A program made the position numbers and the translations under genes. This document shows positions 38,088-56,352 of a stretch of 64,000 bases of DNA, piece by piece. The stretch spans positions 1 through 64,000 of the forward strand of contig CAWAPJ010000006.1 in the NCBI GenBank assembly GCA_963783885.1. Direction: 5' to 3'. The stretch comes from Waddliaceae bacterium (lineage in GTDB: Bacteria > Chlamydiota > Chlamydiia > Chlamydiales > SLFE01). Position 1 is the first letter of the stretch; every line of letters begins with the position of its first letter. The notes under the pieces were generated by a model. The model saw nothing but the letters and a program-made list of their open reading frames with translations. It was not told where the DNA came from and did no database searches.

Positions 38088-39629
38088 ATGAAGAAACATC
38101 TGGGACTACTAACCTCGTTGATTGCGGTACTTGCCACAGCACTCTGCTTTGCTGGGTGTTCCAATTATCGAGGCGCTGATGCATGCTGTCCCGACGTTTG
38201 CGTCCAAGACAGCTGCAATCCACGTCCGTGTCCTCAGCCATGTGAGCCTTGCCAAGAGCCTTGCGCATATGGCAGCACAGGACAAATAACATGTGATGGA
38301 GTGATCGTCACTGCCACACAGCCAAAGCTTTGTATCTTAGGAGACAACTACGCTTTGGATGTCTGCATTAAAGCGTGCATCGATGTATGCCACGTTGAAG
38401 TTAACGCTATGCTTCCCGAAGGCGTATCGCTGGTTCGCAGCGAACCCCCGGGAGTGAAAGAGTCTGACGGTCTGTTGACATGGACCTTTGATCGCATGAT
38501 GAAAGGGGACTGCCATTCCAGCCGCGTCATTTTGCGTGCCGATGTTGAAGGCAATCTTTGCGTGTGCTTTTGCGTAACTGCGATACCTGTTCAATTCTGT
38601 TCAGTACTTTGCGCCAAGCCTATACTCGAGTGCAGCAAGTGCGGCCCCGAAGAAGTGGCTCCCTGCGATCCCGTGCACTATACAATCACCGTTACCAACA
38701 CAGGATCTTGTCCTGCTGAAGATGTCGTTGTGGTTGACAATGTGCCGGACGGACTTGAGCACAGCAGCGGCCAAAGAAGGCTTACATGGGAGCTTGGAAC
38801 TATCTGCCCATGCGAGTCTAAGTGCATCAACGTTTGCTTCACAGCAACTAAGCGTGGACAAGTGTGCAATACAATCAACGTAACGTCTTGTAATGCCCAC
38901 CCGACAAGCTGCCAGTTCTGCACTAATGTTGTTCTTTGCCAGTCCGAGATTGAAAAAACCGGGCCGAAAGAGAGAAAAATCGGCGAAAGCGCTGATTACA
39001 ACATCACAGTCACTAACACCGGAGACAAGACACTCACTGGCGTTGTTGTCTGCGACCAGGCGCCATCGGCAACTTCAATTGTTGAAGCTCCTGGGGCGGT
39101 TGTCAACGGCAACCAGGCAGTTTGGAGATTTGATGAGTTGAAGCCCGGCGAAAAGCAAAATCTTAGCATCACATTGACAACATGTACTCCAGGTTACTTT
39201 GTGAACCATGTTTATGTGGACAACTGTCAAAGATGCCGCGATTGCGCCGAGTGGGGAACACGCTGGAGAGGAACTCCTGCGCTTAACGGATGCTTTGCAG
39301 ATACAAAAGATCCGATTTGCGTTGGCGACTTCAACAGCTATACTCTGAATGTCACTAACCAAGGTTCTGAGGAAGACACCAACCTTCGCGTTGTTCTGCG
39401 CTTCCCAGCAGAGCTTGTGCCTGTGACAACACACGGAGATTCTCCGGCGACAATTTCTGGACAAACAGTGACTTTCGATCCGATCCCGATTGCTGGATCT
39501 AGAGAGGCATTCCAGTTCAGAGTCGATGCTCAAGCGAAAGAGAGAGGAGACGCTCGAATCAAGGCTGAAATCAGCTCTGATACGATCAGAACTCCGATCA
39601 CACTCGAAGAGAGCACGATCATCAACTAA
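38088..39629 (+). CDS. omcB: Large cysteine-rich outer-membrane complex protein OmcB
   Basis: DUF11-type repeats (YTITVTNTG..DNVPDG), DTKDPICVG, VTNQGS.EDTN, many Cys; lipobox-like FAGC. Confidence 0.9.
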   Translation: MKKHLGLLTSLIAVLATALCFAGCSNYRGADACCPDVCVQDSCNPRPCPQPCEPCQEPCAYGSTGQITCDGVIVTATQPKLCILGDNYALDVCIKACIDVCHVEVNAMLPEGVSLVRSEPPGVKESDGLLTWTFDRMMKGDCHSSRVILRADVEGNLCVCFCVTAIPVQFCSVLCAKPILECSKCGPEEVAPCDPVHYTITVTNTGSCPAEDVVVVDNVPDGLEHSSGQRRLTWELGTICPCESKCINVCFTATKRGQVCNTINVTSCNAHPTSCQFCTNVVLCQSEIEKTGPKERKIGESADYNITVTNTGDKTLTGVVVCDQAPSATSIVEAPGAVVNGNQAVWRFDELKPGEKQNLSITLTTCTPGYFVNHVYVDNCQRCRDCAEWGTRWRGTPALNGCFADTKDPICVGDFNSYTLNVTNQGSEEDTNLRVVLRFPAELVPVTTHGDSPATISGQTVTFDPIPIAGSREAFQFRVDAQAKERGDARIKAEISSDTIRTPITLEESTIIN

Positions 39630-39681: not shown

Positions 39682-40377
39682 AGTAAAAAGAGTTGAGGCG
39701 AAAGACTTGCCGGCAAATCCTCCTCTGCCCGCACCTTATTCCCAGCAAGTCTAATTTAGGTTCATCCTGTAAAAGAGGTCCGTAACTCAGTAAGAATCGC
39801 TAAATATTTTGCTTCATCATATGCTTTGCCCGCAGTTAGTATTCTTATCGGGCTAAGAATAACGAACTGGCGGAGTCGCAGGGATGCAAAGAGATGAATA
39901 AAAAATAAGAACAGCCTCTTTAAATCCTGGGTCTTTGAGCCTCCGCATGGCTTTGTTGCACAATTCACCACTGAGATCACCGAGCTCACTGAGAGAATAT
40001 GAGAGATTTGCTTTAAGCTGCTATTAATTCACTTTCAGGCATTCCCAGCCTTGTCATTATGTTTAGTGCTTCGCATTTTGCGCTTGAATCAGCCCTTTGA
40101 GTTTCCAAGGTTCTGCTTCTTAAATCATTTAAATCTGAACATTGCTGTTTCAGCAAGCGATCGATGATGGTATCCTTTCAATTTCTTCCATAACTTTCTC
40201 GCATCATCATCTCCACCTAAACCCGAAATTTCTAGCAAACTGATATTACGTATCTCCCAAGAAGGAGATACATTTTCTCGAAAGGCAGCATTCTGATTGG
40301 GTGGGATAATCGGAATTGAGCCGTGTTTTACATTGGCTGCGTAGCATCGCTCAGTATCATAAGCTCCATCTCCATAG

Positions 40378-41470
40378 ACCCTGATTGCTACCTAATCTTG
40401 TTGTTAAAGTCTTTCGTTGGATTCAGAAGCGTAGACTCGATTTGAAGGCAAGGGTAATCCCTTGCCGATAATCGAGGCTTAGCAGATGAATTCAATGAAA
40501 GATTTTAACGACAATAGTCTCTATGATACTTCCTTAGCCAAAAAGGGGGCATCATGGAAACTTACGCAACAACAGTTTATGTCATCAGCGAAGAAATCCT
40601 TCGAATTTTGGGGATTAAAGACGATCCTCAATCTCAAATGTCCAACGCAGAAGTGATAACTTTTGTTATTTTATCAGCAAAATATTTTTCTTGTAACTAT
40701 AAAATGTCCAGATATTTATGTAAAAGATTACGATTATTCAGAGCTATTTTAAGCAATAGCCGGCTAAATCGCCGAATTCATAAAATTCCTTGGATTTGTT
40801 GGAACGCCATTTTCCGTTTTTTAGCTCTATTTTTTAAGCAAATAAATAAAGATCAGGGTTTTGCTATAGACAGCTTTCCAGTTTCATGTTGTCAGAAAAA
40901 TAGAATCGATAAACGGAAGGTTTTTCTAGAACGAAGGTATTTAGGTTTCGCAGTTTCTAAAAAGCGTTACTTTTGCGGCATAAAAGTTCATAGGATTGTG
41001 ACGAGCGAAGGCAAGCCGGTTGAAGTTCTTTTCAAGCCAGGAGCAGTAAGCGATGTAAAGGTGCTCTGGGAAATGAAACTGGACATTCCACCAGATTCTA
41101 AACTTTATGCAGATGGTGCGTATAATTGCTTTGATTTAGAAGACATCTTGAAAGAAGAACAAATTACATTGCTTGCAAAACGGGGATGTAAAGCAAAGAA
41201 TAGAGTCCGAACACCAACTGAAGAGAGGGAAATTAGCAGCAAGCGACAGATTGTCGAGACGACATTTAGCTGCATAACAAACCTTTTCCCCAGAACTTTT
41301 AAGTTCTGCACTGAACAAGGCTTTTTGATAAAAGTATTCTGTGCAATTCTTGCCTATAGTGTTTTATTTTTATGCAAAGGGGAGCTCAGCTAGAGCTTAC
41401 ACGAGCACACCATCTACTGCCTGTAGCGCCTCGTGTAAGCTCTAGCTAAGGTTTAGGTAGCAATCAGGGT
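40378..41470 (+). mobile_element. IS982-family element, copy 1
   Basis: TIRs ACCCTGATTGCTACCTAA; 5-bp TSD CATAG at 40373-40377 and 41471-41475. Confidence 0.93.
40554..41393 (+). CDS. IS982-family transposase (intact ORF)
   Basis: SRLNRR, AIDSFP, YFCGIKVH, YADGAY, KRQIVETTFS. Confidence 0.9.
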   Translation: METYATTVYVISEEILRILGIKDDPQSQMSNAEVITFVILSAKYFSCNYKMSRYLCKRLRLFRAILSNSRLNRRIHKIPWICWNAIFRFLALFFKQINKDQGFAIDSFPVSCCQKNRIDKRKVFLERRYLGFAVSKKRYFCGIKVHRIVTSEGKPVEVLFKPGAVSDVKVLWEMKLDIPPDSKLYADGAYNCFDLEDILKEEQITLLAKRGCKAKNRVRTPTEEREISSKRQIVETTFSCITNLFPRTFKFCTEQGFLIKVFCAILAYSVLFLCKGELS

Positions 41471-42038
41471 CATAGGTGTGCTTAACAGATTTCGGCATTG
41501 CTTCGAGAAGCTTTGGGTATACTTCACAATCAGCAATTTTATTTTCAGTAAGAATCTCGAAAATGATTTCACTAGAGTCAGGACAAACTGCTAAGTGGAG
41601 TTTTCTCTATGTTCGCCTTTTACTATAACCATGCTGCCTAACCTTCCACTCACCTTCTCCATTTACTTTCAAACCGGTTGAATCGATTATAATATCGGTT
41701 ACATTTTTTTCAGAAAGTTTTTTCAATTCTTGTCCAAGCAATCAGGGTTCAAGGGGAGATAAAAAACCGATCGAATAATGAGCGCGGTGAGAATAGCGTC
41801 ATCAGAATAGAGTTTTGGACAACCCTTTTTTCCTATTTCTTTTGGAGCAGTCCACTTTTTGATAGCATCTTCAGAAAACCAAACAGTTATGTTTCCCCTT
41901 TGAATAAGAGATTTGTTATATTCGTTCCAGTTGCGAATGCGATATTTTGCCTTCATCTTGATTCTTCAATTTGTTACAAAAAAAATTAGAGTATTAGGTA
42001 TTTGTCGGCAAGTTCGTATTCGCCTTTTTGGAGAAAAG

Positions 42039-42446
42039 ATGACCAGTACTCACTCAACTGATGAAGCCAACCAAAAAAGAAATGACCTTCTAACAGGTAA
42101 AATCATAAGTGCTGTGATTGAAGTTCATCGAAGATTAGGTCCAGGCTTGCTTGAATCAACATACGAAACCTGTCTTTGCTACGAATTGAACCTTGCGGGT
42201 TTAAAAGTTAACCGGCAGATACCAGTACCTATTATTTATCGTGATAAAAAGCTAGACTCAGGCTACAGGATCGATATGATAGTGGAAGATAAGGTTATTT
42301 TGGAGATAAAATCTGTGGCTAATCTCTTGCCTGTGCATGAAGCCCAACTTCTATCATATCTTAAGCATAATGGTGGTGGCAGGGGTTTGCTTATCAATTT
42401 CAATGTAAAACTTCTTAAAAATGGGATTAGGCGACTAATCATTTAA
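42039..42446 (+). CDS. GxxExxY protein (PD-(D/E)XK nuclease-like)
   Basis: EVHRRLGPGLLESTYE, YRIDMIVEDKVILEIKSV, AQLLSYLK, GLLINF; GGAG RBS. Confidence 0.92.
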   Translation: MTSTHSTDEANQKRNDLLTGKIISAVIEVHRRLGPGLLESTYETCLCYELNLAGLKVNRQIPVPIIYRDKKLDSGYRIDMIVEDKVILEIKSVANLLPVHEAQLLSYLKHNGGGRGLLINFNVKLLKNGIRRLII

Positions 42447-42663
42447 TTCCTCTCTCATAATCTCTCAGTGAGCTCGGTGATCTCAGTGGTGATTCATGCA
42501 ACAACGCCATGTTGAGTGATCAACTCCTCTACCCACTAAATAAGTTTGAAAAACATATGGTAAATAGGATGCTCACCCCGGAGGGATCAATTTTTCGCCC
42601 CAGTGTGACAATCACAGTGAGAATCTCGGATTTGAATGCCAAACTAGTGTCTGGCCATGCCGG

Positions 42664-51100: not shown

Positions 51101-52245
51101 ACCCTGATTGCTACCTAAACCTTAGCTAGAGCTTACACGAGTGCGCCAGATACAACTGTAGCGTCGACGGCAAGGGTAATCCCTTGCCGAGGCGCTACAG
51201 GCAGTAGATGGTGTGCTCGTGTAAGCTCTAGCTGAGCTCCCCTTTGCATAAAAACGAAACACTATAGGCAAGAATTGCACAGAATACTTTTATCAAAAAG
51301 CCTTGTTCAGTGCAGAACTTAAAAGTTCTTTGGAAAAGGTTTGTTATGCAGCTAAATGTCGTCTCGACAATCTGTCGCTTGCTGCTAATTTCCCTCTCTT
51401 CAATTGGTGTTCGGACTCTATTCTTTGCTTTACATCCCCGTTTTGCAAGCAATGTAATTTGTTCTTCTTTCAAGATGTCTTCTAAATCAAAGCAATTATA
51501 CGCACCATCTGCATAAAGTTTAGAATCTGGTGGAATGTCCAGTTTCATTTCCCAGAGCACCTTTACATCGCTTACTGCTCCTGGCTTGAAAAGAACTTCA
51601 ACCGGCTTGCCTTCGCTCGTCACAATCATATGAACTTTTATGCCGCAAAAGTAACGCTTTTTAGAAGCTGCGAAACCTAAATACCTTCGTTCTAGAAAAA
51701 CCTTCCGTTTATCGATTCAATTTTTCTGACAACATGAAACTGGAAAGCTGTCTATAGCAAAACCCTGATCTTTATTTATTTGCTTAAAAAATAGAGCTAA
51801 AAAACGGAAAATGGCGTTCCAACAAATCCAAGGAATTTTATGAATTCGGCGATTTAGCCGGCTATTGCTTAAAATAGCTCTGAATAATCGTAATCTTTTA
51901 CATAAATATCTGGACATTTTATAGTTACAAGAAAAATATTTTGCTGATAAAATAGCAAAAGTTATCACTTCTGCGTTGGACATTTGAGATTGAGGATCGT
52001 CTTTAATCCCCAAAATTCGAAGGATTTCTTCGCTGATGACATAAACTGTTGTTGCGTAAGTTTCCATGATGCCCCCTTTTTTTGGCTAAGGAAGTATCAT
52101 AGAGACTATTGTCGTTAAAATCTTTCATTGAATTCATCTGCTAAGCCTCGATTATCGGCAAGGGATTACCCTTGCCTTCAAATCGAGTCTACGCATCTGA
52201 ATCCAACGAAAGACTTTAACAACAAGTTTAGGTAGCAATCAGGGT
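51101..52245 (-). mobile_element. IS982-family element, copy 2
   Basis: Same TIRs as copy 1; TSD CGAAG at 51096-51100 and 52246-52250. Confidence 0.93.
51228..52067 (-). pseudogene. IS982 transposase with an in-frame nonsense codon
   Basis: AGA in copy 1 is TGA here (51717-51719); otherwise nearly identical. Confidence 0.9.
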
Positions 52246-56146: not shown

Positions 56147-56352
56147 ACCCTGATTGCTACTTTAACGACAAGTTTAGGTAGCAATCTAGTACCCTATCAA
56201 CTTTGTATTGATAAGTGAGACGATGAGATTTTTGTGACTGCCGAAGCGTGGAGATCGAAGGAAACTTAGTCAAGTTTCCGAGATCGAACGCAATGGCAGT
56301 TGCGAAAAGGTCGAGTCTCACTTATCAATACAAAGTTGATAGGGTACTAGGT
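56147..56352. mobile_element. Internally deleted mini-IS982 containing a nested MITE
   Basis: ACCCTGATTGCTAC joined to TTTAACGACAAGTTTAGGTAGCAAT; flanking CTATG duplication at 56142-56146 and 56353-56357. Confidence 0.75.
56186..56350. mobile_element. 165-bp hairpin MITE bounded by CTAG
   Basis: Perfect 36-bp inverted repeats CTAGTACCCTATCAACTTTGTATTGATAAGTGAGAC; interior is also self-complementary. Confidence 0.85.

Follow-up and report, generated by a model that had tools for sequence, protein, structure and literature searches.

A decayed IS903-group element of a Waddliaceae bacterium with a GxxExxY gene, composite ends and a putative nuclease target

Why should an insertion sequence (IS) of the IS903 group have inverted repeats of 58 bp and a second gene, and to which of its genes do the periodic motifs within these repeats belong? 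The question is raised by the region between positions 39949 and 42508 of a stretch of 64,000 nucleotides (nt), hereafter the window, of contig CAWAPJ010000006.1 (Waddliaceae bacterium, assembly GCA_963783885.1), in which a broken transposase gene and an intact gene of the GxxExxY family lie between long inverted repeats. According to our analysis, the region is best explained as a dead IS903-group (IS5 family) element with GxxExxY as its second gene, to the ends of which the arms of a GxxExxY cassette have been fused, these arms being a putative target of the nuclease; we put the probability of this explanation at roughly 0.6. Before its decay, it would have been an IS903-group element of about 1.55 kb carrying a GxxExxY nuclease gene.

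When aligned from 39949 and 42508, the two ends are identical in inverted orientation at 14 of 18, 36 of 40 and 53 of 58 positions, the last figure being that of an earlier description made from the sequence (the original prediction), and repeat detection lengthens the match to 66 nt at 89% identity (39941-40006 and 42451-42516). Of the five mismatches, all but one fall in the outer 18 nt, leaving a single one for the inner 40 nt (hypergeometric p of about 0.03 by our own arithmetic). The outer segment, previously likened to an IS903 end, is a true terminus of that group, identical to the ISVa2 repeat at 16 of 18 positions and showing the length of about 18 bp and the GGCTTTGTTG-type start of IS903-group repeats. 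The inner segment holds, exactly and in both ends, the three heptamers at a 9-bp period that had been reported for it: the 25-mer CACTGAG-AT-CACCGAG-CT-CACTGAG has exactly two copies in the window, one per repeat, with 0 expected from 100 shuffles, and the two-unit heptamer pattern is confined to the same two ends (4 matches against 0.04 expected). We are nearly certain of the description of each 58-bp end as a composite, with an IS903 terminus in the outer 18 nt and a GxxExxY-type arm in the inner 40 nt, and such ends therefore place the whole IS between two inward-pointing arms, as in the free arm-gene-arm cassettes described below. The outer 18 nt are an ordinary IS903-type terminus for the DDE transposase, and the inner 40 nt constitute the arm, consisting of a short TTCAC-like boundary followed by three CRCNGAG-type heptamers at a 9-bp period.

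The transposase survives as four pieces when compared to the intact relative P0127 (314 amino acids), with identities of 92.8% (residues 1-69), 83% (101-195), 88% (189-279) and 89.5% (277-314). Residues 70-100, about 31 codons, are deleted at a solo IS982-type end remnant, the gene has an in-frame stop and a frameshift, and a complete IS982-family element is nested within it (Table 1), for which reasons this copy is unable to move. Since they are only pieces, the window fragments remain under the cut-off of profile NF033579, which they match at 6.2e-16 and 1.2e-09; P0127 and P0137, which are intact and share 83-93% identity with these pieces, reach 280-287 bits against a cut-off of 140. Three relatives on plasmids, ISVa2, ISSod12 and a Leisingera element, with transposase N-termini 50-59% identical to that of the window, are 1054, 1058 and about 1078 bp long, lack a second gene and have repeats of 17-19 bp, so that the length of about 18 bp taken as usual for the group holds for them. 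The window element is thus akin to the group, here ISVa2 and ISSod12, in its NF033579-type DDE transposase and its terminal 18 nt, and it departs from these 1054-1058-bp, single-gene elements in its 58-bp composite repeats, its second gene, the lack of a 9-bp duplication and its size: restored by removing the nested IS and filling the deletion, it measures about 1547 bp with two genes and falls outside the format of one gene in about 1.05 kb. A spacer of 82 nt separates the two divergent genes, each of which stops close to a repeat, as originally noted, at distances of 6 nt (transposase) and 4 nt (GxxExxY). An IS with a passenger gene likewise holds a non-transposase gene within its terminal repeats; here, the passenger brings its own arms, which are now part of both IS ends. 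A literature search on IS903 and passenger genes revealed no such case in titles and the first lines of abstracts, and the IS5 fragments of a Protochlamydia naegleriophila plasmid (59% identity) contain neither arrays nor GxxExxY.

The origin of the arms becomes apparent from GxxExxY genes that stand free of any IS. A tblastn search against plasmids returned eight GxxExxY records (L122 to L129, the same eight with a second query), and these, together with the Parachlamydiales locus L090, where a 70%-identical GxxExxY gene is followed by a similar arm without an IS903 terminus, constitute the DNA evidence on free cassettes. Where the close cases are annotated, the gene is tightly packed between co-oriented housekeeping genes, namely ade and manC in Bernardetia, radA and the gene of an FAD-dependent protein in Bacteroides, and fabD and fabG in Sphingomonas. 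Across the eight plasmid loci (42.8 kb) the pattern CRCNGAG-NN-CRCNGAG has 11 matches against 0.0013 expected, nine of which lie less than 200 nt from a GxxExxY gene in inverted orientation (L123, L124). In Bacteroides (L123), three CACAGAG-type heptamers at a 9-bp period stand upstream of the gene and their reverse complement downstream, the arms ending in TTCAC...GTGAA; in Gemmatirosa (L124), two full CGCAGAG hairpin doublets enclose the gene; in Bernardetia (L122), inverted CACAGAG units occur on both sides, with the middle unit degenerate; and in Sphingomonas (L125), CGCGAAG-type arms are present on both sides, the downstream one within the tail of an annotated open reading frame. The heptamers of the arms are conserved and their 2-nt spacers variable. 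Translated arrays were recognized as well, as period-3 peptide repeats at the termini of 10 among the 150 best representatives of the family, whereas the controls, 120 transposases and 120 close homologs, had none. One of the ten has TEGTEDTE at its start and LSVSSVLSV at its end. Arms are linked to GxxExxY genes in other phyla, then, and since they flank free-standing genes without a transposase, the periodic motif is to be assigned to the GxxExxY cassette rather than to the IS.

Comparison of filled and empty sites at two junctions shows that arm-gene-arm is an inserted unit. Between fabD and fabG, S. paeninsulae has 29 nt, where S. parapaucimobilis has an arm, the gene and an arm at the same spot; between radA and the next gene, Parabacteroides has 13 nt and B. 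finegoldii a TTCAC-arm, the gene and an arm-GTGAA. At both junctions, arm-gene-arm is exactly what distinguishes the filled site from the empty one. The junction of radA and the FAD-dependent-protein gene in Phocaeicola massiliensis (L136, 1034-1708) holds an unrelated DUF1847 gene and no arms. The cassette with its arms may represent a new kind of element.

Arms were also found without a gene, as hairpin doublets in the intergenic DNA of several phyla. A scan of genome contigs with a degenerate three-heptamer pattern returned at least 121 loci with 127 merged arrays, and in none of these loci was an IS903-type transposase gene present. Most of the arrays (95 of the 127) are mostly coding repeats in high-GC genomes, whereas 32 arrays in 28 loci, among the matches listed, have an arm-like prefix, defined as AC or GC preceded by A/T-rich sequence; these come from Chlamydiota, Verrucomicrobiota, Chloroflexota, Planctomycetota, Gemmatimonadota and others, and 17 of the 32 have an inverted partner within 250 nt as opposed to 8 of the 95. 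One 25-mer array, spacers included, is identical in L080, L084, L085, L100, L111 and L117, that is in five genomes of Chloroflexota and Chlamydiota with unrelated flanks, which speaks for common origin or horizontal spread. Gene-less doublets also occur in the same records as a GxxExxY gene (Bacteroides L123 and Gemmatirosa L124), one of the same heptamer class lying 2.36 kb from the Bacteroides gene. Four doublets fold into long hairpins (z -5.7 to -13), and Rfam returned no family at gathering score, with sub-threshold matches to generic hairpins only. L109 (Verrucomicrobiae) is a gene-less 150-bp hairpin between hemF and a flavoprotein gene, which keeps both arms and whose arm is identical to the left repeat of the window at 50 of 58 positions, inner 13-nt segment included, with an outer part resembling a degenerate IS903-like end. 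In these features, and in its place between housekeeping genes, it is like a miniature inverted-repeat transposable element, whereas most gene-less doublets have no IS903-type terminus. As a separate observation, a 2828-nt Verrucomicrobia contig (L016/L017) carries more than 70 nt inverted at its two ends, with a CACTGAG array and its partner, around a PHO4 phosphate transporter gene; this must be a composite element or else an artefact of assembly.

The protein encoded by the window's GxxExxY gene belongs to that family (TIGR04256, 145.9 bits against a cut-off of 35; PF13366, 3.9e-41), and its Pfam and NCBIfam matches are to PD-(D/E)XK and GxxExxY only, without any tyrosine (HUH) transposase. 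An alignment of 93 sequences shows no variation at G36, E39, Y42 and D79 and hardly any at E89 and K91, and all of these residues are present in the window protein. The structure predicted from this alignment (predicted local distance difference test score, pLDDT, of 92) has only generic PD-(D/E)XK neighbours in Foldseek, namely lambda exonuclease, the archaeal Hjc resolvase, a Cas4 and a splicing endonuclease, none with E <= 0.001 and without TnsA among the matches shown. A sequence search of the PDB gave nothing below E = 0.63, and neither PADLOC nor a phage collection yielded any match. With 20,485 cluster representatives of PF13366 at E <= 0.001, the family is very large, and 26 of the 150 best representatives have two matched stretches, as tandem fusions of about 200-295 amino acids (e.g., P0241-P0257), which fits a protein acting as a dimer. 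Its function is entered as unknown in the relevant portion of the survey that names the family (PMC3424549), and in a full-text literature search for GxxExxY and PDDEXK_3 the retrieved excerpts contained nothing on function or on flanking repeats (PMC8934634, PMC3424549).

With arms on both sides of the gene, the nucleic-acid target of the PD-(D/E)XK protein may well be the arms themselves, two inverted copies of which would be engaged by a dimer; for this part of our explanation the odds appear about even. Arms could, alternatively, act in RNA: the inverted arms would pair in a read-through transcript and be cut by a host RNase or by GxxExxY, insulating the operons of the host, and would be mere inherited baggage in the IS. 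The free cassettes are indeed co-oriented with their neighbours with almost no spacer, an arm in L125 abuts the ATG, the L123 arms differ at three places of which two would, by our reading, form G-U pairs in RNA, and the doublets fold as strongly as described above. However, pairing alone needs no heptamer that is conserved across phyla while its spacers are free, and conserved residues of the D...ExK type are typically those of a metal-dependent DNase; we therefore regard an RNA role as quite unlikely.

As for the IS, we propose that in this lineage the GxxExxY module moves together with the transposase and may help it; because both arms lie just inside the sites of the transposase, these ends could also be synapsed or cut by the nuclease. 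In Tn7, the strand left uncut by the DDE transposase is cut by TnsA. A more specific proposal would make GxxExxY a second-strand nuclease of this kind, positioned by the subterminal arrays, cutting the strand spared by the DDE transposase and turning a partly replicative element into a cut-and-paste one. The TnsA/TnsB precedent, and a PD-(D/E)XK gene adjoining a DDE transposase gene within shared ends that contain repeated subterminal sites, are in its favour, yet most GxxExxY genes have arms but no transposase, and no TnsA structure was among the Foldseek matches shown, so that this version is deemed very unlikely. Tn7 (PMC9308760) is alike in having a restriction-fold nuclease beside a DDE transposase and repeated subterminal sites in its ends, and differs in that GxxExxY has no sequence match or clear fold match to TnsA and is widespread without a transposase.

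Whether the union of the two genes is a peculiarity of this contig was addressed with the best 120 GxxExxY homologs (66-97% identity) and the best 120 transposase homologs (62-93%). Both sets come largely from short contigs: the longest contig does not exceed 2500 nt for 95 of the 120 GxxExxY homologs, and the N-terminal transposase piece matches intact proteins of about 314 amino acids at up to 93% identity, 93 of the 120 listed having 305-325 amino acids. Pairs of a GxxExxY and a transposase with an identical nt count of the longest contig and a common source number 18, against a mean of 3.45 (standard deviation 1.75, maximum 8) in 120 offset controls. Where the transposase is full length (n = 13), the contigs measure 1499-1923 nt, about the size of the restored element, and that of the pair P0005/P0137, with 1556 nt, comes close to the computed 1547 nt; the shortest matched contigs, 940 and 1306 nt, have truncated transposases of 135 and 138 amino acids. 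Furthermore, the 82-nt spacer of the window, when translated, reappears in the longer N-termini predicted for P0011, P0021 and P0016. The unit of an IS903-type transposase and GxxExxY thus probably recurs, as these matches indicate, and the two-gene mobile unit of the original prediction is upheld in being probably not unique, the motif being the part to be reassigned from the IS to the cassette. The two closest homologs from long NCBI contigs, P0002 and P0003 (94-95% identity), show small internal deletions around residues 65-70, and in one of the two the invariant D79 is replaced by Y; both may be copies in decay.

The cassette might, on the other hand, be a pure hitchhiker that inserted into an IS903-group element, its arms being leftover ends and neither partner benefiting. 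Free cassettes enter many unrelated intergenic sites, and the sequences of the paired genes co-diverge weakly. Nor does the state of the window copy speak against it: that the passenger is intact and the transposase decayed, as the original prediction noted, is true on both counts and carries little weight, because four disruptions in 945 nt of transposase predict about 1.7 in the 408 nt of GxxExxY and zero would arise with a chance of about 0.18 (our own arithmetic), which is not significant. A simple insertion, however, leaves both arms beside the gene, whereas here one arm is found across the IS, at its other end, and the two arms lie directly inside IS903-type termini. Down to a protein identity of about 68%, the unit also appears to be kept without damage to either gene, and the L109 hairpin retains both arms. 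On balance we consider the hitchhiker unlikely.

Several observations weigh against the explanation we prefer, that of an IS with fused cassette arms and a second gene acting on them. No arm is found between the transposase start and GxxExxY, and our explanation does not account for the presence of one at the transposase-distal end. A 9-bp target-site duplication is a feature of the IS903 group, and none was found at the flanks of the element, which read CCTCCGCAT and ATGTTGAGT; recombination between copies, or decay, could be the reason. The 8 nt outside each IS end (39941-39948 and 42509-42516), where a direct 9-bp duplication would stand, are mutually inverted at 6 of 8 positions. The co-residence of the two genes is judged from coinciding longest-contig sizes, and their co-divergence is weak, with a Mantel r of 0.148 and 373 of 5000 permutations at or above the observed value. 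The link of the motif with GxxExxY, put forward in the original prediction, holds for genes in other phyla and is not universal in the family: of the four more distant members (L126-L129), L126 has no arrays, L128 has a single inverted heptamer on each side, and the repeats of L127 and L129 are direct and of another kind. Finally, a GxxExxY gene stands beside just one of the 28 arm-like loci (L090) in a Pfam scan of 82 of the 240 flanking open reading frames, those scanned being ordinary genes.

Table 1. Features of the element and of its immediate flanks in the window (position 1 is the first nt of the window).
Feature	Position	Strand	Basis or remark
8 nt outside the left end	39941..39948	.	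inverted (6/8) to 42509-42516; alignment, repeat detection
Left IS903-group terminal inverted repeat, 18 nt	39949..39966	+	16/18 to ISVa2 repeat
Left GxxExxY-type arm	39967..40006	+	AC, three heptamers at 9-bp period (39969-39993), conserved inner 13-nt segment
C-terminal transposase pseudogene pieces, about residues 189-314	40016..40377	-	P0127 alignment; frameshift within 40107-40129; stop codon 40013-40015, frame ending at 40013
Nested IS982-family insertion sequence	40378..41470	+	19-bp perfect repeats, CATAG duplication
Intact IS982-family transposase, 279 amino acids	40554..41393	+	NF033520, 147.9 bits, cut-off 130
Middle transposase pseudogene piece, about residues 101-195	41471..41741	-	P0127 alignment; in-frame stop 41607-41609
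Solo IS982-type end remnant	41737..41748	.	at the site of missing residues 70-100
N-terminal transposase pseudogene piece, residues 1-69	41750..41956	-	92.8% to P0127; gene start at 41956
Divergent spacer, 82 nt, without arm	41957..42038	.	translation recurs in P0011, P0021, P0016 as N-terminal extensions
GxxExxY gene, 135 amino acids, PD-(D/E)XK fold	42039..42446	+	profile matches; G36, E39, Y42, D79, E89, K91 intact; gene start at 42039
Right GxxExxY-type arm	42451..42490	-	heptamer array 42464-42488
Right IS903-group terminal inverted repeat, 18 nt	42491..42508	-	ISVa2 comparison

The nested IS982-family element, overlooked in the original prediction, is 1093 bp long, and its 5-bp duplication CATAG is found at 40373-40377 and 41471-41475. 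A second copy at 51101-52245 is 98.8% identical; its 5-bp duplication reads CGAAG, and close to one end it is longer by about 46 nt. Short end remnants occur at 56159-56186 and 41737-41748; this IS982-family element is therefore active and multi-copy in this genome. Just inside the right end of the nested copy, an inverted repeat of 21 nt (95%) around a loop of 24 nt (41385-41450) overlaps the end of the transposase gene. No further copy of the whole IS903-group element and no second GxxExxY gene could be detected in the window, and promoter and terminator scans gave background level only. Near the element, an open reading frame at 38088-39629 encodes a cysteine-rich, lipoprotein-like protein of 513 amino acids with DUF11 repeats and a Chlamydia outer-membrane-protein-6 domain, suggesting a host that is probably Chlamydia-like.

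The nearest known arrangement for the free cassettes is that of REPIN-RAYT (PMC3116915, PMC3337134), where a single gene likewise stands between inverted short repeats and gene-less doublets are intergenic. The RAYT gene there encodes a tyrosine HUH transposase, while GxxExxY is a PD-(D/E)XK nuclease; its repeat is a heptamer array at a 9-bp period, and the family occurs in many phyla, with identical arrays across phyla. Tentatively, GxxExxY with inverted 9-bp-periodic arms could form an undescribed, REPIN-RAYT-like class of nuclease-based mobile cassettes that spans phyla, with the gene-less doublets as non-autonomous offspring and one lineage fused with an IS903-group transposase, where the nuclease would act on the subterminal arrays; taken as a whole, we find this wider picture possible rather than probable.

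For the GxxExxY family, which is very large, the flanking arrays provide a concrete candidate substrate, and the filled and empty sites indicate that arm-gene-arm behaves as an insertable unit. The fusion of IS903 with GxxExxY would account for the unusually long composite terminal repeat of the Waddliaceae element, and, next to Tn7, it would provide a second example of a restriction-fold nuclease that moves together with a DDE transposase. If the arms are sites of the nuclease, thousands of short intergenic hairpins made of the same heptamers would gain an origin.

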